A stretch of DNA of 64,000 bases from an uncultured virus (IMG/VR IMGVR_UViG_3300037601_000035) (IMGVR_UViG_3300037601_000035), one strand, 5' to 3'. Shown: positions 10,130-49,489, counted from the first letter of the stretch. Numbers and translations are program-made. The notes: generated by a model not told the origin, from the letters alone.

Positions 10130-10945
10130 ATGGGGATTATTAACTATATTAGTTCATTTTTAATTTTAGAGGTACGCATGAGTCACATAGTAGATTTACA
10201 AGAAGTCACTATAAAATTTAGAGATAATTACTTATTACTAGCAGCAGAAAAAGGAAAACCTGATGAAACACGATGCAAAGCACTAATCAATAAATATCAA
10301 TTACTTACATCAAAATACTTTAATATTATTTATAGTACTTTAAATATTAGTATTCTTTCTAGAATTTCTAAAATAATAAAAGGTAAAAATTTTATTCCTA
10401 TAGTGACGTATGAACTTACTATGGAAGCTCATCAAGATGCTTTTTTAAATTTTTATAGAAATATAGAAAAATTTGATCCTAATAGAACAATGACAACATG
10501 GCTATATAGAATAGCAGATAATGAAGCATTAAAGGTTCTTTATAGAGAAACTATTCGTAAAAAAGAAACTTCATTTACTTCTTTATATTATTCAGAAGAA
10601 AATGATGAAGAATATGGAACAAGAGAAATAATTTCTAATAATGAAAACAGTGAAGCGCATTTTAGTAAAATATATGAAAATTCTGTAGATGAAGTAATTA
10701 TTTCAGGTGATGAATTGTTAGATGAAAAATATCAGCTTGCTTTGGAATGTATAGAAGAACTTCCATCAGATAGAAAAACTATTATTGTAGATAAATATAT
10801 TAATAACATTAAACAAGTAGATTTAGAAAAATATTATGGACTTAATCTAAATACTATTAAAAGTAGAGATAGAAAAGCAAAAAGAGATTTAAACTATCTT
10901 TATCAAAAAAGAGTCCAAAGAATATATGAAGAAAACAGTTATTAA
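10130..10945 (+). CDS. ECF-type sigma-70 family factor (true start may be M18)
   Basis: Region 2 QDAFLNFYRNIEKFD..TWLYRIA.N; region 4 LP..RK...GLNLNTIKSR..KAK. Confidence 0.85.
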   Translation: MGIINYISSFLILEVRMSHIVDLQEVTIKFRDNYLLLAAEKGKPDETRCKALINKYQLLTSKYFNIIYSTLNISILSRISKIIKGKNFIPIVTYELTMEAHQDAFLNFYRNIEKFDPNRTMTTWLYRIADNEALKVLYRETIRKKETSFTSLYYSEENDEEYGTREIISNNENSEAHFSKIYENSVDEVIISGDELLDEKYQLALECIEELPSDRKTIIVDKYINNIKQVDLEKYYGLNLNTIKSRDRKAKRDLNYLYQKRVQRIYEENSY

Positions 10946-10950
10946 TTATT

Positions 10951-11454
10951 ATGAAAAAAGAATTTAGCAATTTTATAAAAAAACAATTTATATTCAATAG
11001 TATTATCATATTTAATATTGTAGGAGTTTTTAGAGATTTTTCAAATTATTTCTATTCTAGAAAAAATATAAAGAAATTTACTGAAAAAACTTTTTGGGAT
11101 GTTCTAAAATTAAGACTTGATTGGCTTGGAATGCCTTATACTGTTTTAAATTACGAAGATGAATTTTTTCAAGAAATTTCAGAAACAGGTCAAAAACATG
11201 TAATATTAAGAGATATTGCTCCTTTAATAAGAGAATTTAATTCATTCGAATCTTATGATATTATTCAACTAAAACAAAAAAGATTAAAAGGAGATGCTTC
11301 AAATTCTATTTTAATTTATTTTAGACCTGTATTTTATTTTATTACTCTAAAAAATATCTTCTTTACTTCAATACTAGGATATATAATTTATCTTAATTTA
11401 GATAAAATTTTATTAAAATTTGGGAGCATCTTAAATGCAATTGAAAAGTTATAG
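10951..11454 (+). CDS. Hypothetical membrane protein
   Basis: Hydrophobic segments near both termini. Confidence 0.55.
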   Translation: MKKEFSNFIKKQFIFNSIIIFNIVGVFRDFSNYFYSRKNIKKFTEKTFWDVLKLRLDWLGMPYTVLNYEDEFFQEISETGQKHVILRDIAPLIREFNSFESYDIIQLKQKRLKGDASNSILIYFRPVFYFITLKNIFFTSILGYIIYLNLDKILLKFGSILNAIEKL

Positions 11455-11995
11455 AGAGTATCAAGAAGAAAGAACAGAATTTGGATGTCTAATGGCATAC
11501 TTTGAGTTTCCTTCTATTATTGATATTAGAAATCAAATTTCTGAAAATGATATATTAGAAGATTTCAGAGATTCAGGAGAACCTCATGTTACTATATTAT
11601 TTGGTTTTCATTTAGATGAAACTAATTATAAAGATATAGCAGAAGATTGTAAAAATTTAATTAAACAACCTATTGATGATATAAGAATTATTAATATAAG
11701 TACTTTTGAAAACGAAGAATATGATGTTCTTAAATTTACAGTAGAATCAGAAACTTTAACATCTTTAAATAATTATTTTAGAAATACATATCCTTATACA
11801 AATAATTTTCCAGATTATAACCCTCATATTACTATAGATTATCTTAAACCTGGATCAGGAGATAAATATGTAAATTCACTAGATATTTCAGAAGCTAAAA
11901 AAGAAAAAATAATATGTGATAAAGTAGTTTACTCTATGGGAAATTCTTATTATAAACCTTTCTATTATGTTCCTTCTGAAAGAGAAATTTTATAA
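11435..11995 (+). CDS. 2H phosphoesterase, T4 gp57B/Acb1-like (possible anti-CBASS nuclease)
   Basis: Two HxT motifs (PHVT, YNPHIT) and GCLM N-terminal strand. Confidence 0.75.
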   Translation: MQLKSYREYQEERTEFGCLMAYFEFPSIIDIRNQISENDILEDFRDSGEPHVTILFGFHLDETNYKDIAEDCKNLIKQPIDDIRIINISTFENEEYDVLKFTVESETLTSLNNYFRNTYPYTNNFPDYNPHITIDYLKPGSGDKYVNSLDISEAKKEKIICDKVVYSMGNSYYKPFYYVPSEREIL

Positions 11996-12022
11996 TATAT
12001 AATTTATAAATAAAAAACAAAA

Positions 12023-12523
12023 ATGAAAAATAGAATAGTAGAAAATTTCAGTAATTGGAATAAATTAAACGAAGTCAAAACTTCTTATTTTAGTAAGATA
12101 GAGTTTCCATATTGGCCTGATTCTTCATACAGTTTTTCTGTAGTAGAACCTTTTAAGTTTCTTCATAAAACAGAAACTCCTACTGAAGACCAAATGGTAT
12201 ATCCATTTGTAAATACTGAATGGATAGAACTTAATGCTGAAATTGGAGATATTTTTATATTTAATAGTTTCCATGATAGGAAAAAAGTCAGATATAAACC
12301 TAAAATAGAAAAAGAATATTCTTTACCTGATGGAACTCCTACAATTTTAGATACTACTAGTAATATTACATGCTGGTTTGGTTCAACTAGTCATCCAACA
12401 ACACATAATATTGGTGATATGTATATAAAAGCAGAATTTATTCCTTTAGATAAAGTAGAATTGGTAGATAAAAACGAACGTAATAAACAAGAATGGATGA
12501 GACGTAGAATAAAAAATAAATAA
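12023..12523 (+). CDS. Putative internal head protein
   Basis: Leader MKNRIVENFSNWNKLNE; AATATATA at 11994-12001. Confidence 0.65.
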   Translation: MKNRIVENFSNWNKLNEVKTSYFSKIEFPYWPDSSYSFSVVEPFKFLHKTETPTEDQMVYPFVNTEWIELNAEIGDIFIFNSFHDRKKVRYKPKIEKEYSLPDGTPTILDTTSNITCWFGSTSHPTTHNIGDMYIKAEFIPLDKVELVDKNERNKQEWMRRRIKNK

Positions 12524-12532
12524 AAAACAAAA

Positions 12533-12967
12533 ATGAAAAATAGAATAGTAGAAAATTTCAGTAATTGGAATAAATTAAATGAATATAAAGAAGAATTTAA
12601 AAATTTAACTATTGATCAAATAGTAGTAGACGATTATGAATCTTCTGAAGAACCTTCAGAATTATCAATAATTAAAGAGGTTGAAAAACTTATTGGAGAT
12701 ACTATATTGTTTACTCCTAATCCAGAATTTCATAGAAATATTAATTCTTTAGAAGATGTATATTATTATCTTATAGATTTTAAAAACAATCCAAATGCTT
12801 CATATCAATTGTATTATACTAGAATGCATAATCCTGAAAATTTTGATCCTGGATTTTCTTTTGATACAGAGGATGGTGATTCTATAATGGAACCAGAAGG
12901 TTTAGATCCTTATTATATCAGTTCTCATATTAAAAAACTTCCATTTTTTAATTCAAATGAATCTTAA
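12533..12967 (+). CDS. Putative internal head protein with identical leader; frame stays open after the stop to 13171
   Basis: Same 17-aa leader as the previous gene; 67 further in-frame sense codons after TAA. Confidence 0.65.
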   Translation: MKNRIVENFSNWNKLNEYKEEFKNLTIDQIVVDDYESSEEPSELSIIKEVEKLIGDTILFTPNPEFHRNINSLEDVYYYLIDFKNNPNASYQLYYTRMHNPENFDPGFSFDTEDGDSIMEPEGLDPYYISSHIKKLPFFNSNES

Positions 12968-13200
12968 AAAGAATTTCCAGTTTCTGATTTACAAGTTGGT
13001 GACAGAATAGAATTACAATTTGATGTAGAATATGGTGATGATATTTTATATGCTGGAGATTATGAAGTAGTAAAGCCTCGAGGTCCTCATGGAGTGTATT
13101 TATTATCTCCTAGTTATACAGAACCTTTTAGAATTGAAAAAAGATCTTCTTTACCTTATATTAAATATTAAAAGAAAAATAAAAATTAAAAATTTTTTCA

Positions 13201-13289
13201 AAAAACTTTAAAAAATATTTTTTTATTACAAATAAAGTTGCTATATTACAATTCATTAAAAAACAAAACAAAAATAATTTTAATATATA
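13201..13289 (+). promoter_or_regulatory. Promoter block of tRNA operon 1 (near-duplicate of 25599-25686)
   Basis: About 90 bp shared with the region upstream of operon 2; contains TTTTTTATT..TATATTACA and AATATATA. Confidence 0.75.
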
Positions 13290-13298
13290 GATTATAAA

Positions 13299-13436
13299 AT
13301 GAAAAACAATATCACAAATATTACCCTAACACAAACGACACTTGATCAAAGTCAAGCATTATCGTCGCTTCAGTTATGTGCCGATTATCCGTGGGCATTT
13401 GGAAGGGTTATATTTAATGGTATACAAAATATGTAA
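13299..13436 (+). CDS. Attenuator leader peptide 1 (45 aa): MKNNITNITLTQTTLDQSQALSSLQLCADYPWAFGRVIFNGIQNM
   Basis: Translated by hand; codons 9-33 use only T,L,Q,D,S,A,C,Y,P,W, the amino acids of the downstream tRNAs. Confidence 0.8.
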   Translation: MKNNITNITLTQTTLDQSQALSSLQLCADYPWAFGRVIFNGIQNM

Positions 13437-13466
13437 ATATATTTTAATTAAATACGAAATTAAAAC

Positions 13467-13507
13467 AAACCCTTTCAGAAGAAATTTTGAAAGGGTTTTT
13501 CTTTTTT
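13467..13507 (+). terminator. Attenuator terminator 1
   Basis: AAACCCTTTCAGAA-GAAA-TTTTGAAAGGGTTT plus T-tract; 5' arm can instead pair with 13398-13409. Confidence 0.85.
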
Positions 13508-13522
13508 ATAGTAAAAGAAAAT

Positions 13523-13535
13523 TGTTCATTGAAAA
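13523..13535 (+). promoter_or_regulatory. boxA-like antitermination site
   Basis: TGTTCATTGAAAA, similar to the rrn-leader boxA GTTCTTTGAAAA, just before the first tRNA. Confidence 0.55.
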
Positions 13536-13551
13536 GTAGAATGTATAAAAC

Positions 13552-13638
13552 AGAAGATCTGAGTATTGGTGAACTCACCTGTCTTGAAAACAGCTGACGT
13601 CGAAAGGGGTCTTTTCGGTTCGAATCCGGAATCTTCTG
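13552..13638 (+). tRNA. tRNA-Ser(TGA)
   Basis: AGAAGAT/ATCTTCT acceptor; loop CTTGAAA; long variable arm. Confidence 0.85.
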
Positions 13639-13724
13639 CAGTGTAACTATTATGATGACTCTTAGGAGTCTGACTATATTAAAAATATTTAGGAAATTTG
13701 GACATTATAATAGTTACTATTTTT

Positions 13725-13797
13725 GGGATAGAAGTGTTAATGGAAACACGCCGCATTGTCACTGCGGAAATTGTCGGTTCGATCCCGATGTATCCCG
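13725..13797 (+). tRNA. tRNA-Asp(GTC)
   Basis: CCGCA-TTGTCAC-TGCGG; T loop GGTTCGATCC. Confidence 0.9.
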
Positions 13798-13868
13798 CAA
13801 TATTTAGGTACGGTAATACCCGTTAAAGTAAATGGATTCTTGTCGTAAGACCAGCCTAAATTTTTTAT

Positions 13869-13941
13869 CAGTCTGTAGCTCAGTTGGTAGAGTACACCGT
13901 TTGGGGCGGTGGGGCCGCCGGATCGTGACCGGCCAGACTGA
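13869..13941 (+). tRNA. tRNA-Pro(TGG)
   Basis: CACCG-TTTGGGG-CGGTG; CAGTCTG/CAGACTG acceptor. Confidence 0.9.
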
Positions 13942-13945
13942 CAAC

Positions 13946-14020
13946 ATTTGCATCGTATAATTGGAAGTACACTTACTTGTTTTGTAGGTAAAGGCAATGG
14001 TTCGATTCCATTTGCAAATA
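13946..14020 (+). tRNA. Atypical tRNA-like element (nominal anticodon GTT)
   Basis: ATTTGCA/TGCAAAT acceptor; D and T arms present; loop TTGTTTT lacks purine 37. Confidence 0.5.
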
Positions 14021-14026
14021 TGTCAT

Positions 14027-14099
14027 GGGACAATAGCTCAATCGGGAGAGCACTGGTTTTGCAAATCAGAGGTTGTGGGTTCAATCCCCATTTGTTCCA
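14027..14099 (+). tRNA. tRNA-Ala(TGC)
   Basis: CTGGT-TTTGCAA-ATCAG; G3:U70 pair present. Confidence 0.9.
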
Positions 14100-14111
14100 C
14101 ATTTTTAATAT

Positions 14112-14193
14112 GCCAGTATCGAGCCGTGGGAGCTCAGGCGGATTGTAAACCCGTCCCGGAAACGGTATATAGGTTCGACTCCTATTGCTGGCA
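14112..14193 (+). tRNA. tRNA-Tyr(GTA)
   Basis: Loop TTGTAAA; long variable arm CCGGAAACGG. Confidence 0.85.
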
Positions 14194-14200
14194 CATTTAT

Positions 14201-14271
14201 TCCCTTGTAGTGTAATGATAGCACAGTTCACTTTGAATGAACTAGTCTCGGTTTGAATCCTGGCAAGGGAG
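14201..14271 (+). tRNA. tRNA-Gln(TTG)
   Basis: GTTCA-CTTTGAA-TGAAC. Confidence 0.9.
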
Positions 14272-14275
14272 CAAT

Positions 14276-14360
14276 AGTAGATTTGGGATATTGGTAATCC
14301 TAGCATGTTTGCTAAACATGTGGCCCTTGTGGTCTAAGTGTTCGATTCACTTATCTACTG
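14276..14360 (+). tRNA. tRNA-Ser(GCT)
   Basis: CATGT-TTGCTAA-ACATG; long variable arm. Confidence 0.85.
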
Positions 14361-14376
14361 CATTTTTTAATAACAT

Positions 14377-14462
14377 GCTCCCATGGCGAAATTTAGGTAG
14401 GCGCTCAGGACTTAAAATCCTGTGATCGAAAGGTCGTCCCGGTTCGAGTCCGGGTGGGAGTA
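14377..14462 (+). tRNA. tRNA-Leu(TAA)
   Basis: CAGGA-CTTAAAA-TCCTG; long variable arm. Confidence 0.92.
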
Positions 14463-14478
14463 CATCTAACGAGTAATT

Positions 14479-14808
14479 ATGAAACTTAAACAAGTAAAGT
14501 ATTTTTGTAGAAATAACACTAAATCAGGAATTGATTCTTTTGATAATTCAGTAAAGAATGTAATTGATGGAAGAGTTATTTTTTATATGATGGATTCTCA
14601 AGGAATGTCTTTTGATATTTTAATGGATTTATTAAATAATAAAAATATGGGTTTTGATGTAGAAACTTTTATTATTGCTGCAAAGGAAAGTAAAAATTAT
14701 AGAAAAGATAGATTAAGATTATTATTTGAATATAGTTCTCCTAATAAAGAAAAATATTTAGATTTTATGGAAAAGGTAGATTATTTACTTGATAAAATAT
14801 TTGATTAA
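14479..14808 (+). CDS. Small protein inside the tRNA array; resembles a helical segment of alanyl-tRNA synthetase
   Basis: IDGRVIFYMMDSQGMSFDIL resembles the AlaRS G..AF.LYDTYGFP.DL motif. Confidence 0.45.
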   Translation: MKLKQVKYFCRNNTKSGIDSFDNSVKNVIDGRVIFYMMDSQGMSFDILMDLLNNKNMGFDVETFIIAAKESKNYRKDRLRLLFEYSSPNKEKYLDFMEKVDYLLDKIFD

Positions 14809-14812
14809 ATAT

Positions 14813-14892
14813 GCGTCGGTGGCAGATAGGCAATGCAGCGGTCTCCAAAACCGTGTCGAAAGACTATGTGGGTTCAAATCCTACCCGGCGTG
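14813..14892 (+). tRNA. tRNA-Trp(CCA) with extra variable-arm hairpin
   Basis: GCGGT-CTCCAAA-ACCGT then GTC-GAAA-GAC. Confidence 0.88.
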
Positions 14893-14898
14893 CACAAA

Positions 14899-14972
14899 GC
14901 CTCGTTAGCTTAATTGGCTAGAGCGACACCGTTGTATCGTGTTAGGTCTCAGTTCGAATCTGAGACGAGGCT
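14899..14972 (+). tRNA. tRNA-Thr(TGT)
   Basis: GCCTCGT/ACGAGGC acceptor; loop GTTGTAT. Confidence 0.8.
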
Positions 14973-14979
14973 CATGAAT

Positions 14980-15065
14980 TCCCGCGTAGGCCAGAGGTGA
15001 GTCAGCCCGTTTAGACCGGGTGGTAACGTAAGATACAGTACGAGTTCGAATCTCGTCGCGGGGAC
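14980..15065 (+). tRNA. tRNA-Leu(TAG)
   Basis: GCCCG-TTTAGAC-CGGGT; long variable arm. Confidence 0.85.
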
Positions 15066-15098
15066 ATTATTAATCTAAAAGGAAAATATATACTTTAA

Positions 15099-15719
15099 GT
15101 GATAAAAATATATATGAACTTTTTTAAACTTTTCGAATCCTTTATTAGTGAAAATAGAATAGATAATCTATATAATGTGCTTAATAAATCAAATGAAGAA
15201 ATATTTGATTTATTAATTAACATTAAAGGTGTTGATTCTATTTTAAATAAATTAGGGTTAAAAGGAAAAACAGGAAAAACTGCTTCTCTTAAGGAAATGC
15301 AAATGTTGGCTTCTGCTTTAGATAGACCTTTTTGGTATAGTTCTTTACCTGTATCTTATTTCTTTTCTAGTCCAGAAAAACTTCCTGAAAGTACTTCTTT
15401 ACTTCATTTTACAAATAGACCAGATGAGATAATTAAAAAAGGATTTATTCACGGTACTGAAGATTTTAATAAACTTGGTATGTCATGGGGTAGTATGTCG
15501 GGTGGTAAACCTGGATGGAATTACGCATTTAGATTAGAAGATATTATTAAGTATTATGGATCTATAGAAAAAGCTAAACAACATTGGGGAAGAGAAAAGG
15601 TTATTGAATTTGAAGCTCCTGGTATTTTAGTTTGGCATCATGGAGATCAAGTAGATCAAGTTTTGTTTTGGGGCCCTGACGCAAAGAATATTAGAAAATA
15701 TAAGTCTTCTAATGGATAA
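15099..15719 (+). CDS. Putative virion-packaged protein, possible ADP-ribosyltransferase-like fold (start probably 15114)
   Basis: Leader KLFESFISE; LLHFT...IIKKGF motif. Confidence 0.45.
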   Translation: MIKIYMNFFKLFESFISENRIDNLYNVLNKSNEEIFDLLINIKGVDSILNKLGLKGKTGKTASLKEMQMLASALDRPFWYSSLPVSYFFSSPEKLPESTSLLHFTNRPDEIIKKGFIHGTEDFNKLGMSWGSMSGGKPGWNYAFRLEDIIKYYGSIEKAKQHWGREKVIEFEAPGILVWHHGDQVDQVLFWGPDAKNIRKYKSSNG

Positions 15720-15751
15720 AAACTTTTCCTTATTGTATAAGTATAATAAAT

Positions 15752-16114
15752 ATGGAAAAACTTATACAATTATATTCGAATTTATTTAAAGCTGCTTCAG
15801 AAGATATTAAAGAAGGTCCCATAGAATGGGAAGATTTTTTAGAAGGAGAAAAAGAATTTTTAAAATCATTTAATCTTGCTTATAGTTATTTATATTATTT
15901 TAAAGAGCTTTTAAATATTCCTTATGATGTATTCTTAGATGCTGATTTAGATATTAGATTTGTATTTTTTAAAAGAGAAGACACTTTTTCTATTTGTTTT
16001 ACAACTGAAGGTACTTTAGTCTTTGCAACTTCTGAATATTTAATTAAACCTTTTGAAGAAGAAGCTTCTATTGAAACATTTCTTAAAATTAAAAAACTAA
16101 TATTAGAAGGTTGA
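15752..16114 (+). CDS. Hypothetical protein
   Basis: ORF after AAACTT-N16-TATAAT at 15720-15747. Confidence 0.6.
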   Translation: MEKLIQLYSNLFKAASEDIKEGPIEWEDFLEGEKEFLKSFNLAYSYLYYFKELLNIPYDVFLDADLDIRFVFFKREDTFSICFTTEGTLVFATSEYLIKPFEEEASIETFLKIKKLILEG

Positions 16115-16115
16115 A

Positions 16116-16844
16116 ATGTATTATCAAAAATATACAAATTTAGATTTATTAAAATTAGCAGAACTTAATAAAGATGTTTATAAACAACCTAATCCTTTTC
16201 CTTCAATTTATTTTGATAATTTTTTTAAAGAAGATTATTTAACAGAAGTTTTAAATGAATTTCCTGATCTTTCTAGACAAAAAGAAATTTCTTCTTTTAA
16301 TAATCAAAATGAAAAGAAATTTGCTTCTAATGGAGATATTTTATTTGGAGAAAAAACAAGAGAACTTTTAAATTTTTGTAATTCAAAATATTTTTTAAAT
16401 TTTCTTCAAACTATTACAGGAATAAATGAACCTTTAATAGGAGATCCCTATTTTCTTGGAGGAGGTCTTCATGAAATTAAAAAGGGTGGATTGCTTGAAG
16501 TTCACGCAGATTTTAACAAACACTCTCTTCTAAATCTTGATAGAAGAATAAACGTACTTATTTATCTAAATAAAGATTGGAAAGAAGAATATGGTGGTCA
16601 CTTTGAATTATGGGACAAAGAAATGAGCGGTCCTCCTATTCAACTTTTACCTATATTCAATAGAATATGTATTTTTTCAACTACTGATTTTTCATATCAT
16701 GGACATCCTAATCCATTAACTTGTCCAGAAAATATGTCAAGAAAGTCCTTGGCTCTTTATTACTATAGTAACGGAAGACCTCAAGAAGAAATAAATACAG
16801 GACTAGAAAATCATTCTACATTATTCAAAAAGAGAACAAAATGA
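16116..16844 (+). CDS. 2OG-Fe(II) oxygenase
   Basis: GGGLH, HADFN (HxD), YLNKDW...GG.FELW, SYHG, RKSLALYYY. Confidence 0.9.
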   Translation: MYYQKYTNLDLLKLAELNKDVYKQPNPFPSIYFDNFFKEDYLTEVLNEFPDLSRQKEISSFNNQNEKKFASNGDILFGEKTRELLNFCNSKYFLNFLQTITGINEPLIGDPYFLGGGLHEIKKGGLLEVHADFNKHSLLNLDRRINVLIYLNKDWKEEYGGHFELWDKEMSGPPIQLLPIFNRICIFSTTDFSYHGHPNPLTCPENMSRKSLALYYYSNGRPQEEINTGLENHSTLFKKRTK

Positions 16845-17092
16845 TTGAGATTAAACTTGATATTAAACTTGGTATAAACGATATTGAAAGCGTTACAGTT
16901 CTTACTGATCATTTATCAGTCGATGAAGGAAAGTATTTAAGACGTAATAAGGAAACAATCTTTAATTATCTTAGAGAAGGTTTAGAACATGTTCGTAGTA
17001 AATATTTATTTGAACTAAGCATACCAAAAGTAAAAAACCTTATAACTGAAGAGTTAGAAGAATATGTAAATCAAAAAATTAAAACTTGCTAA
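16841..17092 (+). CDS. Hypothetical protein; its stop codon overlaps the 5' end of tRNA-Cys
   Basis: Coupled to the upstream ORF. Confidence 0.55.
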   Translation: MIEIKLDIKLGINDIESVTVLTDHLSVDEGKYLRRNKETIFNYLREGLEHVRSKYLFELSIPKVKNLITEELEEYVNQKIKTC

Positions 17093-17159
17093 CGTACCCA
17101 AGTGGTTAGGGAACTGCCTGCAAAGCAGATACACGGGAGTTCGAATCTCTCCGTTAGCT
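17088..17159 (+). tRNA. tRNA-Cys(GCA)
   Basis: CTGC-CTGCAAA-GCAG; GCTAACG/CGTTAGC acceptor; U73. Confidence 0.88.
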
Positions 17160-17164
17160 CGAAC

Positions 17165-17203
17165 ATTAACCAGAGGTGTACAGATGACTTCTGGTTAATT
17201 TTT
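17165..17203 (+). terminator. Probable terminator ending tRNA operon 1
   Basis: TTAACCAGAGGT...ACTTCTGGTTAA plus T-run. Confidence 0.6.
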
Positions 17204-17831: not shown

Positions 17832-20024
17832 ATGGGACTTGCGTCTTCAAGAAAAAGATTTGTAAAAAGAAAACTTCTTACTCAAGATCATTTTAAAAGA
17901 CTATCTGAAGGAGATCCTTCTAAAAGTTATAAGTATCTTGAAAAGATGTGTGAATATGTTTCTTATGATAGAGCAAACATAAAAACAATAATAGATGAAG
18001 TTAAAGTTTTTGATTTTTTAGACAATACATATTTAAGCAATTCTGATATTCAAAATATTCCAAACTATTTAGAATTTCAAAGTATTATTAAAGATGCTTT
18101 AGAAAAGAAAAAAGAAATAGAATTAGTTAAAACGAAAAAGAATCATTTTGATATAATTGTTGACGATGAAAATTATTTAATAGTGTCTCCACATACTGAA
18201 GAATCTTCTATTAAATATGGCCAAGGAACTAAATGGTGTACTTCTTCTAAAGAATCTTTGAATCGTTTTGATCAATATAGAAAAGAATCTACTTTATATT
18301 ATATTCATAATAAGAAATTACCAGAAGTTGATCCTAATCATAAAATAGCACTTCAAGTATTTCTTGATGATAAAAGAGTTGATGAACATTGGAATGCAGT
18401 TGATAACAATATTTCTCCTCCTGAGTATATTGTAAATTTAAAAGAAAAATATAATTTTAAATTTTTTGAATTACCTGAAATTGAATATGAAAATGAGTAT
18501 GAAAGATACGGATTAGATATTGATAAAATTGTTTTTAATACAGATGGATCTATTGATTATCATGGAGACGTAAATCTTTCAAATAAAAAATTGACTAAGA
18601 TACCATTTAACTTTAGAAACGTCTATGGTCATTTTGATGTAAGTAACAACAAATTAATTTCTTTAAAAGGATGTCCTGAAAAAACATATAAATTTCATTG
18701 TGGTTGGAATCAATTAGTTTCATTAGAACATGGTCCAAAAAGTGTCACAACAGTCTATAATGCTGAACATAATAAATTAAAAAATATTGATTTTATTGCA
18801 ACAGAATATACTAAGTGTAATATTTATTTACAGCATAATGAAATTTCATCTATAGATTATAACATTATTTCTAATTTATCTTTTGTTTCTGCCAATGTTT
18901 TTTATATTTCATATAATTTATTAGAAGATGTAATATTAAAACCATTTTCATTTTTTAAAAATTTATATTTTTCTAATAATAAAATTAAAAAAATTATTGA
19001 TAAAGCTCTTTGGTTAGAGTTTGAACAACTAGATCTTTCTTCTAATAAATTAAAAAAATTCGGATACCAGGCAAATTCTTATACAATACACAATTTAAAT
19101 TTAGCATCTAATCAAATAGAAAATATAACCTTTGAATTTTTATCAGTAAGAAATTTAAATTTAAATAACAACAGAATTAAAAAACTTAAATCTATACTTT
19201 TATTTAAATGTGATTCATTATATTTATCCGACAATCTTATAGAAGAAGTAGATTTAGAAAATTTTATAATTTCTACAAAATTAGATTTAAATAAAAATTT
19301 AATTTGTTTTAACAAAATAAAATTTGCTAAAGCTAGAGGATATATTCAAAATCTTTTTCTTAATGATAATCCTATGTCAATTAAGAAAACTCCGTCTTCT
19401 AATAAAATAGATCGTATCGTCGCAGGAATAATTCATAACATTGAAAATTTGCTTTCATATAAAAAATTAGATTTTGAAAAACCTGAAAAAATAGATGATT
19501 TAGAAAAAGAAATTTATGACATCTACAAAAATTTTAAATTATATCAACAGCTATCCTTAAAGTTTACTTTTTCTGAAATTATTCGAATCGGGAATTATAA
19601 TTTGGGAGATTGTATGACAGGGTCTATTCAAGTAGAAAAAGAACGGCCTTATAGATGGATCACTGATGTTCCATTGCCTGGTACACAAGGAGATTTTATT
19701 TCAAGAAGAGGGATAGCGGGTTTTGGATCTCATAGTATTCAAACAACACCAAGAGAGAATATACTTAAAGTAGTTGGTCATCTAGATTATCCTTCTTCTT
19801 TAACAGTTAAATTAACAAATAAAAAAGATGATTCTAGAGAAGCGTTTGAAGAAGTAGACGGACAATTTAGATTATTTGGTCCATTAAATCACTCTTCATC
19901 AGAAACTTTCAGACTTTCTAAAAGTAGAGAACGTACTACTATAGAACAGCTGGAATCAGTTTCATATATTGTTGAAAGATATGAATCGCTTACTACGACA
20001 ACGGAAAATAGAGGAAACGAATGA
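17832..20024 (+). CDS. Leucine-rich-repeat protein with KYGQGTKWCT domain (paralog A)
   Basis: LxLxxNxI repeats; N-terminal half very similar to the next gene. Confidence 0.8.
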   Translation: MGLASSRKRFVKRKLLTQDHFKRLSEGDPSKSYKYLEKMCEYVSYDRANIKTIIDEVKVFDFLDNTYLSNSDIQNIPNYLEFQSIIKDALEKKKEIELVKTKKNHFDIIVDDENYLIVSPHTEESSIKYGQGTKWCTSSKESLNRFDQYRKESTLYYIHNKKLPEVDPNHKIALQVFLDDKRVDEHWNAVDNNISPPEYIVNLKEKYNFKFFELPEIEYENEYERYGLDIDKIVFNTDGSIDYHGDVNLSNKKLTKIPFNFRNVYGHFDVSNNKLISLKGCPEKTYKFHCGWNQLVSLEHGPKSVTTVYNAEHNKLKNIDFIATEYTKCNIYLQHNEISSIDYNIISNLSFVSANVFYISYNLLEDVILKPFSFFKNLYFSNNKIKKIIDKALWLEFEQLDLSSNKLKKFGYQANSYTIHNLNLASNQIENITFEFLSVRNLNLNNNRIKKLKSILLFKCDSLYLSDNLIEEVDLENFIISTKLDLNKNLICFNKIKFAKARGYIQNLFLNDNPMSIKKTPSSNKIDRIVAGIIHNIENLLSYKKLDFEKPEKIDDLEKEIYDIYKNFKLYQQLSLKFTFSEIIRIGNYNLGDCMTGSIQVEKERPYRWITDVPLPGTQGDFISRRGIAGFGSHSIQTTPRENILKVVGHLDYPSSLTVKLTNKKDDSREAFEEVDGQFRLFGPLNHSSSETFRLSKSRERTTIEQLESVSYIVERYESLTTTTENRGNE

Positions 20025-22213
20025 GTTTACAAACAGCAAAGAAAAGATTTTTAAAAAGAAAGTTGATTAATTATGAAGACTTTCATAAATTATCTAAATC
20101 AGATCCTTCTAAAAGTTATAAGTATCTTGAAAAGATGTGTGAATTTTATGTATACGATAAAGTAGAAATAGATATTTTATGTAAAGAAGTTGATAATTTC
20201 CATTCCATTCCAGATTCTTATTTAGAAAATTCAGATATTCAATCTATTCCAAATCACATTGAATTTGAAAAAATTGTTAAAGATGCTTTAAATAAGAAAC
20301 ACGAAAAAGAAAATAAAAAATTCTCTAAAGACAATTCTATTGTTTTAGTTGATGATGAAGAATATCAAATAGTAATTCCTAATTCTATAGATTCGTCTAT
20401 AAAATATGGTCAAGGAACTAAATGGTGTACGGCTGCTAAAGAAGATAATTATTTTAATTCTTATAGAGAAGATAATACTTTGTATTATATTTGGAATAAA
20501 AAATTATCTAAAAATAGTTATGTTTATAAAATAGCAGTAGTAGTTAATAAGGATAATATAATTAATTCTGTATGGAATGCAAAAGATCATCAAATTAATG
20601 AGCATATAGTAGAACCTATCATAAGTAAATATAAAGAAAAATTTACCTTTAAATATGTTGAAAGAACATATACTAATGAATATGAAAAATACGGGTTAGA
20701 TACAACTAAGATAACGTTTAATAGCGATGGTACTATAAATTATGACGGTAATGTTGATTTAATAGGAAAAAAATTAACTAAGATACCGTTTAATTTTAAA
20801 TATGTAAACGGATATTTTAATATAAGTAATAATCTAATATCTAGTTTAAAAGGATGTCCTGAAAGAATAGAAAGTTTTTTTAGTGCTAATTATAACAAAA
20901 TTAAAAGTTTAAAATATGGACCTATGTTTGTAGGAACTGCTTATAGTGTAACCAATAATCAATTAAGAACTATAAAAGGAATTGCCAAGGAAATAGGTTT
21001 TACTGTCGATTTAGATAGCAATAAAATATCTAACGTTAAAGGATTTGATACTATTAAATTTAAGAATAAAACAAATTTATATTTAAATGGAAATAAATTA
21101 AAAAATTCTCAATTAAAATATTTAAAAATTTATGAATGGAATAATGTAAGTTTAGCAAGTAATAAATTATCAGGAACTATCGATTCTAAATGTTTAGATT
21201 TCCCTGTATTTGAAAAAGTAGATATGGATAGATTAATATTACATGATAATGAAATATCAATTTTTAAAGTATATTTTAATTTTATAGATCAATTAAGTAT
21301 TGGGAATAATAAATTAACATATTGTACGCTTCCCGGAAACGCACGTAATGTAGATTTATCATTTAATTTAATTGAAAGGGTAGAAAATAAATCTATTTCA
21401 GATAGAAATATTAATTATTTAATATTAGATAACAATAAAATTAATCAAATAAATTTTAGAAATATATTTATTAGTGGAGAGTTATCTCTGAAAAATAATA
21501 ATATTGAAAAAAATTCTTTTATTCCTATTGAAAATGATCATTATATTAATACAATTCATTTAGGAGGTAATCCTATAAATATAGAATATGATTTTAAATT
21601 TCCTAAAAATTTTAATGTTACTAAAATAAATAATCAATCTACGATTAATTTATACGAATATGGTGATAATGATATATTTTTATCAAATAGATATAAATTG
21701 ATTAATAAAATAAACAAAAAAGAAAAGTTAGATTATGATGAATATTATCAATTATGGAATTCTAAAGAACAGCTTGTAATAAATTTTGATTCTATTAAGG
21801 AAGAAGAATTAATAGATCCGCCCATTGCTAGTGCGCCTGGAGATTTTAAAGAAATGCTTGAAAGAGCATTTAAAAATTCATTAAAAGAACATATTCTTGA
21901 TAGTAATGACATAGTACCTTCACGGCCGTCGAGAATGCCTCCTCCAACAAGGGGCCTCCATTATATTGATTATGTTTATGAACATCCAGAATCTTCAGGT
22001 ACTGTTAATCTTGGATTCAAAATTGTAAATAAAGATCAACCGGGTTTATTCGATTCAATGTATCAAAATATTGATGTTAATGGAAAAACTATATTTGAAT
22101 CTAAAGATAGTGATTTTCATATAAATGATCTTGAGGAAAAATTAAAAAATGAATCTTCTGCAGTTAAAAATATGCTTAACGAATGGACACAATTTATAGA
22201 GAGACAACAATGA
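20021..22213 (+). CDS. Leucine-rich-repeat protein with KYGQGTKWCT domain (paralog B)
   Basis: Same architecture and length as paralog A. Confidence 0.8.
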   Translation: MSLQTAKKRFLKRKLINYEDFHKLSKSDPSKSYKYLEKMCEFYVYDKVEIDILCKEVDNFHSIPDSYLENSDIQSIPNHIEFEKIVKDALNKKHEKENKKFSKDNSIVLVDDEEYQIVIPNSIDSSIKYGQGTKWCTAAKEDNYFNSYREDNTLYYIWNKKLSKNSYVYKIAVVVNKDNIINSVWNAKDHQINEHIVEPIISKYKEKFTFKYVERTYTNEYEKYGLDTTKITFNSDGTINYDGNVDLIGKKLTKIPFNFKYVNGYFNISNNLISSLKGCPERIESFFSANYNKIKSLKYGPMFVGTAYSVTNNQLRTIKGIAKEIGFTVDLDSNKISNVKGFDTIKFKNKTNLYLNGNKLKNSQLKYLKIYEWNNVSLASNKLSGTIDSKCLDFPVFEKVDMDRLILHDNEISIFKVYFNFIDQLSIGNNKLTYCTLPGNARNVDLSFNLIERVENKSISDRNINYLILDNNKINQINFRNIFISGELSLKNNNIEKNSFIPIENDHYINTIHLGGNPINIEYDFKFPKNFNVTKINNQSTINLYEYGDNDIFLSNRYKLINKINKKEKLDYDEYYQLWNSKEQLVINFDSIKEEELIDPPIASAPGDFKEMLERAFKNSLKEHILDSNDIVPSRPSRMPPPTRGLHYIDYVYEHPESSGTVNLGFKIVNKDQPGLFDSMYQNIDVNGKTIFESKDSDFHINDLEEKLKNESSAVKNMLNEWTQFIERQQ

Positions 22214-25170: not shown

Positions 25171-25593
25171 ATGAATAACGAAAATATAGTAGAAAGTTAC
25201 AATGACTTTCATAGAATAAACGAAAACGAAGAAAGTAAAAATGATGTTTCAGAATCGATAATTTTAGTTGATAATGAAGATTATTTAATTGTTGTTCCTA
25301 AAAATTATGAAGACTCTGTTAAATATGGAAAAGGTGCTAAATGGATGCCTGCTTATACCGGATATGGTGGAGAATATTCTTTTGATTTATATAATGAACA
25401 AGGTACTTTGTACTATATTATAAACAAAAATCTCGATAGTGATGATTCATTATCTAAAATTGGAATTTATATAGATTCTAGAAATGATAGTAAACATATT
25501 TATGATGTAAATGATTATACTTTGAAATGGGAAGATTTACCAAAAGAAATTTTTGATCATTTACCTGAAGAGGAATTTATTCATAGAGATTAA
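25171..25593 (+). CDS. Putative internal protein: targeting leader plus stand-alone KYG.G.KW domain
   Basis: IVESYNDFHRINE; domain shared with the two LRR paralogs. Confidence 0.7.
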   Translation: MNNENIVESYNDFHRINENEESKNDVSESIILVDNEDYLIVVPKNYEDSVKYGKGAKWMPAYTGYGGEYSFDLYNEQGTLYYIINKNLDSDDSLSKIGIYIDSRNDSKHIYDVNDYTLKWEDLPKEIFDHLPEEEFIHRD

Positions 25594-25598
25594 TTTTA

Positions 25599-25686
25599 AA
25601 AAACTTTAAAAAATATTTTTTTATTACAAAGACATTTACTATATTACAATTCATTAAAAACAAAACAAAAATAATTTTAATATATA
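25599..25686 (+). promoter_or_regulatory. Promoter block of tRNA operon 2
   Basis: Near-identical to 13201-13289. Confidence 0.75.
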
Positions 25687-25715: not shown

Positions 25716-25844
25716 ATGCTTTCAAGAAATATACATAATAACATAAATAAGAATTTCAATATCGAAATGGGTCGTAAGAATCATTTTGGGAGAGAAATTT
25801 TTGTCGAGAATATTTCTGAGAAGCTGAACGTATTTAAAACGTAA
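25716..25844 (+). CDS. Attenuator leader peptide 2 (42 aa): MLSRNIHNNINKNFNIEMGRKNHFGREIFVENISEKLNVFKT
   Basis: Translated by hand; codons 4-33 use only R,N,I,H,K,F,E,M,G,V, the amino acids of the downstream tRNAs. Confidence 0.8.
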   Translation: MLSRNIHNNINKNFNIEMGRKNHFGREIFVENISEKLNVFKT

Positions 25845-25867: not shown

Positions 25868-25904
25868 AAAAGCTTCTTAGGAAATATCTTAAGAAGCTTT
25901 TTTT
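25868..25904 (+). terminator. Attenuator terminator 2
   Basis: AAAAGCTTCTTAGGA-AATA-TCTTAAGAAGCTTTT plus Ts; 5' arm can instead pair with 25814-25825. Confidence 0.85.
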
Positions 25905-25912
25905 GTTATAAT

Positions 25913-25937: not shown

Positions 25938-26011
25938 GCCCGAGTGGTCTAATTGGTCAGGACACTACACTTTCTATGTAGGGATTGCGAGTTCGAGTCT
26001 CGTCTCGGGTA
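25938..26011 (+). tRNA. tRNA-Glu(TTC)
   Basis: CTACA-CTTTCTA-TGTAG (unusual U37). Confidence 0.8.
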
Positions 26012-26027
26012 CACTTAAATGATAAAT

Positions 26028-26103
26028 CCGGTCGTAGCTAAGTTGGTGAAAGCATCCCACTCATAATGGGAAGATATCGAAAGTTCAAGTCTTTCCGGCC
26101 GGA
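26028..26103 (+). tRNA. tRNA with CAT anticodon (elongator Met or Ile2)
   Basis: TCCCA-CTCATAA-TGGGA. Confidence 0.85.
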
Positions 26104-26112
26104 CATTAATAT

Positions 26113-26186
26113 AGCAGGGTAGAGCAGATGGCCAGCTCGCGAGGTTCATATTCTCGAGGTCGTGGGTTCGAATCCCGCCCCTGCCA
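26113..26186 (+). tRNA. tRNA-Met(CAT), initiator-like
   Basis: A1:C72 mismatch; CGAGG-TTCATAT-TCTCG. Confidence 0.8.
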
Positions 26187-26192
26187 CTATAT

Positions 26193-26267
26193 GGGGAATT
26201 AGCTTAGTAGATTTAAAGCGCAACTTTTACAAAGTTGAGATCAAAGGTTTGAATCCTTTATTCCCTA
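26193..26267 (+). tRNA. tRNA-Val(TAC)
   Basis: CAACT-TTTACAA-AGTTG. Confidence 0.9.
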
Positions 26268-26273
26268 CAACAT

Positions 26274-26349
26274 GAACTGCTGGCGCAATTGGATTTAGCG
26301 CATCGGATTTTTACTCCGAGGGTTCCGGGTTCAAGTCCCGGGCAGTTCA
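26274..26349 (+). tRNA. tRNA-Lys(TTT)
   Basis: TCGGA-TTTTTAC-TCCGA. Confidence 0.9.
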
Positions 26350-26354
26350 CATAT

Positions 26355-26428
26355 ACACAACTAGCTTAATTGGTGAAAGCGCAGGTCTGATACACCTGAG
26401 AGTGAAAGTTCAAATCTTTCGTTGTGTA
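26355..26428 (+). tRNA. tRNA-Ile(GAT)
   Basis: CAGGT-CTGATAC-ACCTG. Confidence 0.9.
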
Positions 26429-26436
26429 CACGATAT

Positions 26437-26509
26437 TCCCTTGTAGCTCAATTGGAAGAGCGTAGGATTTCTAATCCTAAGGTTGGAGGTTCAAGTCCTC
26501 TCGAGGGAA
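26437..26509 (+). tRNA. tRNA-Arg(TCT)
   Basis: TAGGA-TTTCTAA-TCCTA. Confidence 0.92.
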
Positions 26510-26526
26510 CTTATTTTTTTAATAAT

Positions 26527-26600
26527 GCACCTATGTTGTTTAATTGCTAGCATGAAACCCTTCCAAGGTTTAGGTCTCGGTTGGAATCCGAGTAGGTGCT
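26527..26600 (+). tRNA. tRNA-Gly(TCC)
   Basis: AAACC-CTTCCAA-GGTTT; U73. Confidence 0.88.
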
Positions 26601-26713
26601 CAATATATGATACGTTTTTGAATAATTCTGTTTTATAACTAGCTTTGGTTTAGGCGAGCAGATTGAAGGAATTATCAGAAGTCTAGTAGTCTCTAGATTA
26701 TCATATTTTATAT

Positions 26714-26788
26714 GGACCCTTAACTTAAACGTGGTGAGAGTGCCTGGTTGAAGCCCAGGAAGTACTGGTTCGATTCCGGTAGGGTCCA
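26714..26788 (+). tRNA. tRNA-Phe(GAA)
   Basis: CCTGG-TTGAAGC-CCAGG. Confidence 0.88.
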
Positions 26789-26815
26789 CAATATTTAAAT
26801 TATAAGGATAATAAT

Positions 26816-27154
26816 ATGTGTATTTTTTGTTCTATTGTTAATAAAAAGATTCGATCGAATATCCAGTACGAAGATGATTTAGTACTTGCTTTTGATGATA
26901 TAAATCCAGTAGCAGATATTCATATATTGATTATTCCAAAAATTCATATTGTAAATTTATATGAAAAGAGTTCAGATGGTAAAGAATTAATTTATGGAAG
27001 AATGTTAAAAGTTGCATCTGATTTATCTCGTAAACATAAATTAAAAAATGGATTTAGAATAGTAATAAATAATGGAAAAGATGGACTTCAAGATGTTAAT
27101 CATTTACATATTCATTTAATAGGTGGAAGAAAGCTTTCATATCCTATAGCGTAA
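26816..27154 (+). CDS. HIT family (HinT-like) nucleotide phosphoramidase inside the tRNA array
   Basis: CIFC, AFDDINP, HILIIPK.H, HLHIHLIGGR. Confidence 0.92.
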   Translation: MCIFCSIVNKKIRSNIQYEDDLVLAFDDINPVADIHILIIPKIHIVNLYEKSSDGKELIYGRMLKVASDLSRKHKLKNGFRIVINNGKDGLQDVNHLHIHLIGGRKLSYPIA

Positions 27155-27164
27155 TTTAAACTTT

Positions 27165-27235
27165 TCTCCTGTAATTTAAAGGTAAAATGCCATACTGTTA
27201 ATATGGTCTTGGGGGTTCAAGTCCCTCCGGGAGAG
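27165..27235 (+). tRNA. tRNA-Asn(GTT)
   Basis: CCATA-CTGTTAA-TATGG. Confidence 0.9.
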
Positions 27236-27245
27236 CACTTTATAA

Positions 27246-27318
27246 GCCCATATAGCTCAACTGAAAGAGCACTTGAATACGAATCGAGAGGTTGTGAGTT
27301 TGAATCTTACTATGGGTT
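27246..27318 (+). tRNA. tRNA-Arg(ACG)
   Basis: CTTGA-ATACGAA-TCGAG. Confidence 0.85.
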
Positions 27319-27326
27319 CTTGATAT

Positions 27327-27404
27327 GGTGATTGTAGCTTAATTGGTTAAAGCCCTTGGTTGTGAGCCAAGACGATGCGAGTTCGACTCTCGTGAATCAC
27401 CCCA
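27327..27404 (+). tRNA. tRNA-His(GTG) with G-1 and encoded CCA
   Basis: CTTGG-TTGTGAG-CCAAG. Confidence 0.9.
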
Positions 27405-27407
27405 AAT

Positions 27408-27448
27408 AAAAATCCTTACTAAAAAATAAATTAGTAAGGATTTTTTTT
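27408..27448. terminator. Bidirectional terminator between tRNA operon 2 and the convergent gene
   Basis: AAAAATCCTTACTAA...TTAGTAAGGATTTTT. Confidence 0.8.
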
Positions 27449-27464
27449 ATTATGAAAGATAAAT

Positions 27465-49198: not shown

Positions 49199-49489
49199 AT
49201 GAAAAAATTATTTTTAGTAATTATTAGTACATTTATTTTTTTGGGATGTGAAAAAGAAGAAGAATTACACCTCCCTCCAAATTCTTCAAATTCTTATGAA
49301 TTTGTTCGTCATTCTGATTTTAATGAAGGTTATGGTATTTATATTGTAACTGTTAGAAATTGTGAATATGTTATTTATGAAAGAGGATATGGATCTGATA
49401 TGGAGCATTATGCTGATTGTCAAAATCCAAATCATATACAAAATCAAATGAAAACTAAAAAATGGAGCGCAGAAAATTTAGATGAATAA
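49199..49489 (+). CDS. Putative lipoprotein
   Basis: MKK..FLG-C lipobox-like signal. Confidence 0.65.
   Translation: MKKLFLVIISTFIFLGCEKEEELHLPPNSSNSYEFVRHSDFNEGYGIYIVTVRNCEYVIYERGYGSDMEHYADCQNPNHIQNQMKTKKWSAENLDE

Follow-up and report, generated by a model that had tools for sequence, protein, structure and literature searches.

When does a phage that carries two arrays of tRNA genes transcribe them? This is the question raised by a stretch of 64,000 nucleotides from the uncultured virus IMGVR_UViG_3300037601_000035 of IMG/VR, hereafter the window, in which each of two tRNA arrays lies behind a short open reading frame (ORF) and a hairpin. Leader-peptide attenuation is the textbook control of amino-acid biosynthesis, and tRNA genes are, to our knowledge, thought to be controlled at promoters. 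Here we argue that the two leaders, called Leader 1 and Leader 2, are likely ribosome-mediated (leader-peptide) transcription attenuators that gate the two phage tRNA arrays. The initial annotation had described such an attenuator for Leader 1. This reading is supported, and it has gained a second copy of the architecture in Leader 2, array-matched residue runs that are the longest in the window, and six distantly related megaphage records. The anatomy of the leaders, their energetics, the match between their residues and the arrays, and the recurrence in relatives are established observations.

Leader 1 consists of the following parts:

13299-13436, plus strand: ORF call of 45 codons, peptide MKNNITNITLTQTTLDQSQALSSLQLCADYPWAFGRVIFNGIQNM
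13316-13331, plus strand: segment 1, codons 6-11, the 5' arm of the anti-antiterminator, pairing with 13400-13415
13323-13397, plus strand: sensing run, codons 9-33, 25 consecutive residues of array 1 (plus Cys)
13398-13415, plus strand: segment 2, codons 34-39, the arm common to helices 1:2 and 2:3
13467-13498, plus strand: intrinsic terminator hairpin (segments 3 and 4), from a consensus scan, with 14 pairs, a loop of 4 and a T-rich tail
13495-13506, plus strand: T-tract of the terminator, TTTTTCTTTTTT, read in the sequence

The pairings, coordinates and codon features given for Leader 1 in the initial annotation are confirmed. Read directly, the 1:2 pairing joins 13316-13327 (AAATATTACCCT) to 13404-13415 (AGGGTTATATTT) with 11 of 12 positions complementary, and the 2:3 pairing joins 13398-13409 (TTTGGAAGGGTT, codons 34-37) to 13468-13479 (AACCCTTTCAGA) with all 12 positions paired, two of them as G-U. 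The terminator at 13467-13498 with its T-tract was recovered by the consensus scan. The energies calculated with ViennaRNA are -12.9 kcal/mol for helix 1:2, about -15.9 to -16.4 kcal/mol for 2:3 and -18.1 kcal/mol for 3:4, or -17.5 kcal/mol when the terminator is treated as a hairpin. The whole leader (223 nt) has a folding z-score of -4.9, and none of 200 shuffles folds equally well. None of 400 shuffles of the upstream stretch, and none of 400 other stretches of the window, matches helix 2:3.

When the transcript is grown step by step, the minimum free energy (MFE) structure passes from 1:2 to 2:3 and then to 1:2 plus 3:4: helix 1:2 is present until the 3' end reaches 13476, 2:3 takes its place at 13482-13488, and 1:2 plus 3:4 is found from 13492, where 3:4 has seven pairs, with all 14 formed by 13498. 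An equilibrium calculation with ribosome footprints never favours the antiterminator; it is considered below.

The same architecture is found a second time in the window, in front of the other array:

25716-25844, plus strand: Leader 2 ORF call of 42 codons, peptide MLSRNIHNNINKNFNIEMGRKNHFGREIFVENISEKLNVFKT
25718-25732, plus strand: segment 1, pairing with 25810-25824 at -13.4 kcal/mol
25725-25814, plus strand: sensing run, codons 4-33, 30 consecutive residues of array 2
25810-25825, plus strand: segment 2, forming helix 2:3 with 25871-25883 at -17.9 kcal/mol
25868-25901, plus a T-run to 25904, plus strand: terminator hairpin, 3:4 at -19.2 kcal/mol as a duplex and -17.7 kcal/mol as a hairpin

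Stepwise MFE folding of Leader 2 gives the same three states in the same order, the z-score of the whole leader is -5.4, and again none of 400 shuffles and none of 400 genomic stretches matches its helix 2:3. With energies of -15.9 and -16.4 kcal/mol in this chance test, the 2:3 antiterminator is far beyond chance in both leaders. Behind an upstream repeat that both have in common, the stem sequences are unrelated, ACCCU/AGGGU in Leader 1 and GCUUC/GAAGC in Leader 2, so that between the two leaders the architecture is conserved and the sequence is not.

The genes downstream of the leaders are:

13552-15065, plus strand: tRNA array 1 (ARAGORN, Rfam); its first part is Ser(tga), Asp, Pro, Asn, Ala, Tyr, Gln, Ser(gct), Leu(taa)
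within the same span, plus strand: the rest of array 1 (ARAGORN, Rfam), the ORF 14479-14808 followed by Trp, Thr, Leu(tag)
17088-17160, plus strand: lone tRNA-Cys(gca), 3' of array 1 (ARAGORN, Rfam)
25938-27404, plus strand: tRNA array 2; its first part is Glu, Met, Met, Val, Lys, Ile(gat), Arg(tct), Gly(tcc, Rfam only), Phe
within the same span, plus strand: the rest of array 2 (ARAGORN, Rfam), a HIT gene followed by Asn, Arg(acg), His

ARAGORN reports 24 tRNA genes, and Rfam adds one, at 26529-26598. Both arrays together with tRNA-Cys cover all 20 amino acids, and Asn is the sole one common to the two arrays. There is one leader per array, and the arrays and the leaders split the amino acids alike; therefore each leader serves as a control for the other. 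The additional gene, tRNA-Gly(UCC), is a marginal Rfam match (30.1 bits against a cut-off of 29) with the anticodon loop CUUCCAA; it is missed by ARAGORN at default settings and ambiguous at relaxed ones. By eye, its acceptor stem forms a perfect 7-bp helix if the gene is read from 26527.

The match between leader residues and downstream tRNAs is seen in both leaders. In Leader 1, 32 of the 45 residues belong to the array-1 set (plus Cys), and all 11 amino acids of this set are present, while 37 of the 42 residues of Leader 2 belong to the array-2 set, with all 10 of its amino acids present. Counting only residues exclusive to one set, Leader 1 has 27 for array 1 (with Cys) and 13 for array 2, and Leader 2 has 5 and 28, respectively (2x2 Fisher test, p = 6.6e-6). 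Compared with random segments of the real proteins of the window, the match has a probability of 0.012 for Leader 1, 7.5e-5 for Leader 2 and 1e-5 jointly. Among 63 short ATG ORFs (35-60 codons) both leaders rank second, at opposite extremes. Further, when the 64 kb are translated in all six frames, no run of array-1 residues is longer than that in Leader 1 (25, runner-up 17) and no run of array-2 residues is longer than that in Leader 2 (30, runner-up 20); both runs stop at codon 33, right before segment 2. Excluding Cys, the run of Leader 1 falls to 18, which is still the longest in the window (runner-up 16). From the single Cys codon of this run, the tRNA-Cys at 17088 possibly belongs to the same transcription unit as array 1. 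An ORF of 83 codons (16841-17092) has Cys as its last codon and overlaps the first bases of this tRNA gene, which may be coincidence.

The codons follow the same pattern. In 46 long ORFs, each of the codons described as rare in the initial annotation (ACG, ACC, TCG, CCG, GCC, CAG) accounts for a share of less than 0.10 of its codon family. Codons below this share make up 10 of 45 in Leader 1 (P = 0.023) and 8 of 42 in Leader 2 (P = 0.028), compared with 5.5% in the genes. Both Ser boxes (AGT, TCG) and both Leu boxes (TTA, CTA/CTT) are sampled as had been described, mirroring tRNA-Ser(gct), Ser(tga), Leu(taa) and Leu(tag). By eye, each leader has at least one codon for every tRNA species of its array, with both Arg boxes included. 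The tail of Leader 1 (codons 34-45) has 11 of 12 residues in the array-2 set, and a cross-wiring of the two arrays was considered for this reason; the idea was dropped because the tail of Leader 2 has no counterpart (4 of 9) and the tail of Leader 1 is constrained by segment 2.

Where else does this arrangement occur? The window has a G+C content of about 26% and a phage-like gene content, with profile matches to a T4-type portal protein, a sigma-70-region-2 protein, a split type II topoisomerase and a NAD-dependent DNA ligase. The portal protein is 30-36% identical to those of uncultured megaphages (460-735 kb) and Prevotella Lak phages. In IMG/VR the portal search gave one locus at 35% identity, which was not used further, and in metagenome contigs and genome contigs it gave no match. 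There is no megablast match of 12000-17200 among phages, no match of the exact 21-nt promoter pattern in IMG/VR, and blastn of the tRNA array returned matches to single tRNAs only, in unrelated phages.

We therefore screened distant relatives by layout, using the window and 24 loci from LR756500.1, LR756502.1, LR745206.1, LR756504.1, LR756501.1 and Lak-A1 MK250016.1. A candidate was a hairpin plus T-run at most 160 nt upstream of a tRNA, and the leader ORF was the longest ATG ORF of 10-90 codons ending at most 95 nt upstream of the hairpin; composition was ignored. From 40 hairpin candidates we kept the 24 that combined an ORF with a hairpin at least as strong as -9 kcal/mol, 22 of them from the six records. 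The 16 that were dropped include the leaders MKTLSTYPLGQAQTLGTPPITG and MINLVNIIDNRRDDNNIIQSSWA and one KKKK leader, all of which match their tRNAs by eye.

Of the 739 residues in the 24 kept leaders, 409 fall in the set of the leader's own array, compared with 221.6 expected from the pooled leader composition, and the own array ranks between first and third of 24 for every leader. Permuting leaders over arrays 20000 times never yields a mean score as high as the observed one (3.76 against 0.03 +/- 0.35); homologous leader-array pairs in related phages are non-independent events in this test, and the peptides still differ widely. A 2:3 partner at p <= 0.05 is found in 14 of the 24 leaders by shuffles, the two of the window included, and in 11 of 24 against genomic stretches, and it usually ends a few codons before the stop.

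Individual leaders illustrate the match. In LR756500.1, a His-Glu-Val-Trp array lies behind a 24-codon ORF (MKAISVHIIHIWEHLLEEVNINIM) and a hairpin of -15.4 kcal/mol, an Ala...Leu-Pro...Tyr-Gln-Gly-Thr-Gly series lies behind MKTLSTYPLGQAQTLGTPPITG, and a series of Asn, Asp, Arg and Met lies behind MINLVNIIDNRRDDNNIIQSSWA. Other examples from the relatives are seven consecutive Gln before four tRNA-Gln, KKKK before four tRNA-Lys, and Ile/Arg/Met before Arg-Ile-Met. Some arrays have nested leaders, where a broad Pro/Asp/Gln leader is followed by a Gln-only leader before the Gln tRNAs.

In general, the leaders of these Lak-like megaphages resemble those of the window: a hairpin before a tRNA, an ATG ORF of 16-59 codons, and residues enriched for the downstream tRNAs. 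They also have in common with Leader 1 a start of the form M-[KRTN]-[TN], counted by eye in 19 of the 24 leaders. The two differ in breadth, as the Lak-like phages often have narrower nested leaders (Gln-only, Lys-only), whereas in the window the 20 amino acids are split over two broad leaders. Nucleotide similarity is limited to a short motif in the 5' leader, which the window has in common with that of the His-Glu-Val-Trp array of LR756500.1.

Two further observations concern LR756500.1. An 83-codon ORF (reverse-complement 11458-11709), whose tail, LDLSENSSLNSDSSSSLLYS, is rich in Ser and draws on both Ser codon boxes, stops 5 nt short of tRNA-Ser(gct) and tRNA-Ser(tga), with no intervening hairpin by eye; it may represent a different coupling of translation to tRNA genes. 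In addition, a tRNA at reverse-complement 1281-1349 has the anticodon CTA and reads TAG, which agrees with reports of stop-codon recoding in Lak-like phages. The ORFs of the window read well in table 11.

Upstream of both leaders there is a promoter-like sequence, and related motifs occur elsewhere in the window:

13196-13280, plus strand: promoter-like repeat and common 5' leader upstream of Leader 1, 86% identical to 25594-25678 (family D6)
25594-25678, plus strand: promoter-like repeat and common 5' leader upstream of Leader 2
13211, 17764, 23327, 25609, 33290, 49124, 51064 and 56324, plus strand: copies of the promoter-like motif family

The 85-nt repeat belongs to a motif family (D2) of which the window contains at least 6 copies, and the one upstream of Leader 1 contains a sigma-70-like match (9 of 12 positions, 13225-13252), a putative promoter. 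Motifs of roughly the form ATTTTTTTATTTAAAAA-TTTTTCTTATATTACA stand upstream of genes (families D2, D3 and D9). As the phage encodes a sigma-70-region-2 protein (10130-10945), this family may represent phage-specific promoters.

How would such a leader work? In the scheme that we propose, the promoter, leader translation, and the direction and kinetics of switching are inferred, the switch by analogy. A phage promoter would start a short transcript that carries a test ORF of 42-45 codons and, about 40-55 nt ahead of the first tRNA, an intrinsic terminator. The residues of codons 4-33 or so of each ORF are almost all amino acids of the downstream tRNAs, and the codons include rare G/C-ending ones and both Ser, Leu and Arg boxes. 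In a shortage, a ribosome slowed at about codons 3-29 would leave segment 2 free and would cover segment 1, directly when its A-site is at codons 3-15 or, plausibly, by means of queued ribosomes; here a footprint from -15 to +12 of the A-site is assumed. When segment 3 emerges, 2:3 would form in place of the terminator, and RNA polymerase would pass the T-tract into the tRNA array. With adequate supply, the ribosome would cover segment 2 (A-site at codons 30-43) during the synthesis of segments 3 and 4, and 3:4 would stop transcription; alternatively, the ribosome would terminate, 1:2 would re-form and 3:4 would again stop transcription. The tRNAs made would speed up decoding of the leader, so that the whole would form a negative-feedback loop of supply on demand, with one channel per array.

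A number of points weigh against this attenuation scheme. The terminator state is always favoured at equilibrium, with an advantage of 10.4 kcal/mol when no ribosome is present and of 5.3-7.6 kcal/mol when a footprint lies on segment 1, and the switch must consequently be kinetic. We do not count this result against the scheme, because classical attenuators also fail to favour the antiterminator at equilibrium, and the choice in trp is held to be kinetic. The geometry departs from that of the textbook attenuators. The initial annotation had cautioned that a ribosome stalled at codons 30-33 would partly cover segment 2, and with the assumed footprint stalls there do start to cover it; Leader 1 has its sole Tyr, Pro and Trp codons at positions 30-32, where the front edge of the ribosome reaches segment 2. 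Further, the stop codon lies 19-25 nt past segment 2, so that a terminating ribosome leaves this segment unmasked. Helix 1:2 is predicted in the MFE structure of both leaders, yet it is not clearly above what AT-rich sequence offers: among 1000 shuffles and 1000 genomic stretches each, 55 and 45 match it for Leader 1, and 14 and 162 for Leader 2. In the screen, 10 of the 24 leaders have no significant 2:3 partner by shuffles, and the searches given above found no close relatives in which covariation of the helices could be followed. The run of Leader 2 is the longest of the window only when the marginal tRNA-Gly is counted.

Some of the adverse points concern expression. At neither leader ATG is there a Shine-Dalgarno motif, which is likewise missing from 23 of the 46 long ORFs. 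Ranked among all ATGs, the start context reaches the 91st percentile for Leader 1 and the 83rd for Leader 2, but among gene starts it reaches only the 17th and the 9th, respectively. Translation of the leader ORFs is putative, and the frame-specific residue match argues for their decoding. Finally, a -10-like sequence, TGTTATAAT, lies at 25904-25912 between the terminator of Leader 2 and tRNA-Glu, and it could allow transcription of array 2 independently of the leader.

These points are also the ones from which other explanations draw. If the region were an ordinary intergenic one, with a plain terminator, a small ORF that is there by chance or is an orphan, and tRNAs expressed from a promoter of their own downstream of the hairpin, then the missing Shine-Dalgarno motifs, a helix 1:2 at chance level and the -10-like TGTTATAAT after the Leader 2 terminator would all fit. 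In addition, promoter-like sites are expected by chance in AT-rich DNA, and 19 are found against 20.2 expected. We regard this explanation as distinctly unlikely, as the longest array-matched runs of the window fall in precisely these two ORFs, none of the 400 shuffles or 400 genomic stretches matches the 2:3 partner of either leader, and layout and residue match recur in 22 leaders of six other phage records at a level that none of the 20000 permutations reaches. A real switch with another readout is improbable as well. Here translation of the leader would control access of Rho, or the processing or stability of the tRNA precursor, or stalling would favour termination. The direction of the switch is taken from analogy and feedback logic only, and with the stop codon beyond segment 2 the classical masking geometry is unmet. 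Both leaders do however have a canonical hairpin and T-tract together with a mutually exclusive 2:3 helix of nearly equal strength, and a positive feedback, in which shortage leads to less tRNA, has no evident use.

The remaining two explanations separate the RNA from the peptide. An untranslated leader whose codon run binds tRNAs or a protein (T-box-like or protein-mediated antitermination) would agree with the strong structure (z = -4.9 and -5.4) and with the lack of a Shine-Dalgarno motif; we give it very little probability. Among matches at E <= 10 there is no T-box or other riboswitch in the leaders, the best sub-threshold one being His_leader (25 bits against 49), and the array match exists at the level of amino acids, in a single frame from ATG to stop. 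Since synonymous codons of both boxes are used, only decoding explains this match. Functional micro-proteins with a composition unrelated to regulation would account for the start M-[KRTN]-[TN] of 19 of 24 leaders. Beyond the first residues there is however no common sequence, the composition changes with the array downstream, and the N-terminal codons (AAA/ACA/AAU) are equally well explained by easy initiation, so that the chance of this explanation being right appears minimal.

Leader-peptide attenuation of the tRNA arrays can be compared with several known systems. The known leader-peptide attenuators include trpL, hisL, leuL, thrL, pheL and the multivalent ilv leaders of enterobacterial amino-acid operons. 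The phage leaders have the same order of parts: a putative promoter, a short, putatively translated ORF with regulatory codons, alternative helices 1:2 (predicted) / 2:3 / 3:4, a terminator and the regulated genes. Their terminator is somewhat stronger than the antiterminator and the decision would have to be kinetic, as in the enterobacterial leaders, and they use rare codons in the sensing run, as leuL does with its rare CUA codons. In contrast to the enterobacterial leaders, the targets are tRNAs and not enzymes, so that the product itself would relieve the stall. Further differences are that 10-11 amino acids, compared with one to three, are sampled a few times each over 25-30 codons; that the ORF itself contains segment 2, with 6-12 codons left before the stop; and that the leaders are found in a phage genome, one per tRNA array. 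Unlike in trp, a terminating ribosome does not mask segment 2.

The pheST attenuator with its pheM leader peptide controls phenylalanyl-tRNA synthetase, so there too a leader peptide senses how much charged tRNA is available and, by attenuation, governs a gene of the decoding apparatus; there, however, a synthetase and one amino acid are involved, whereas the phage leaders concern whole tRNA arrays and many amino acids. T-box riboswitches also switch between terminator and antiterminator on tRNA status and have translation-related targets. They bind uncharged tRNA directly and need no ORF, whereas the signal of the phage leaders is in a putatively translated frame. No T-box model is found among all matches at E <= 10 in the two leader regions, His_leader (RF00514) scores 25 bits against a cut-off of 49 in the Leader 1 region (E = 0.043) and does not reach its gathering score, and within the window the Rfam gathering score is reached by tRNA alone. 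A full-text search, in a corpus that leaves subscription journals and older papers outside its coverage, gave no description of leader peptides or attenuators before tRNA genes. What appears to be new here is the tRNA array as target, the proposed self-referential feedback, and leaders of many amino acids tailored to each array.

A wider role is conceivable, and we put it forward as a tentative and rather doubtful idea: the two leaders would jointly form a two-channel sensor of decoding capacity for 20 amino acids, triggered by the loss of host tRNAs in infection (through tRNA-cleaving anti-phage nucleases or host tRNA decay), and would replace the damaged class of tRNA as an inducible counter-defence. 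The window also contains a gene for a T4-type RNA ligase 1 (49482-50525); the T4 enzyme repairs nuclease-cut tRNA. At 11435-11995 there is a 2'-5' RNA ligase/LigT-like protein, with a match to Acb1 just below threshold (26 against 27 bits). By their sequences the two are candidate RNA-repair or anti-defence genes.

Several other features of the window were recorded. Two protein genes lie inside the tRNA arrays, the HIT-family hydrolase in array 2 (26816-27154) and the ORF of 109 codons in array 1 (14479-14808), which has no relative in IMG/VR. After tRNA-His of array 2 and before a convergent gene (27465-29051), a strong hairpin at 27407-27449 with T-runs on both sides was found by eye; it is likely a bidirectional terminator that closes the array. 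A protein encoded at 46935-49049 on the minus strand has GEVED and type IX secretion C-terminal sorting domains, which hints at a host among the Bacteroidota, though about half of the gene starts carry Shine-Dalgarno-like motifs. Eighteen sequencing runs are listed for the DNA of the window, from pond, aquatic and gut metagenomes and recorded as DNA, with no RNA run among them.

Two families of repeated genes are also present. Tandem paralogues of 730 codons (17832-20024 and 20021-22213) have a conserved KYG.G.KW stretch in common with a shorter gene (25267-25362), and the one copy that was scanned (17832-20021) has no Pfam match. A family of small genes with a common N-terminus (M..RIVE.F..W / IVESF.DFH) is scattered over the window, at 12023-12523, 12533-12967, 25171-25593, 55587, 55880 and 59855.

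In conclusion, attenuation appears to have been rewired across a clade of giant phages, such that tRNA genes read, array by array, the shortage that they cure, and more of a tRNA set is probably made only when ribosomes run short of that set. The window is an unusually clean case, as 20 amino acids are split over two arrays and the leaders are split likewise. If true, this would explain how tRNAs are dosed in phages that carry dozens of them, and it would provide a simple sequence signature, in which the composition of a leader predicts the regulated tRNAs and vice versa. It would also make it testable whether the tRNA arrays of phages answer a mismatch in codon usage or an immunity that targets tRNA.

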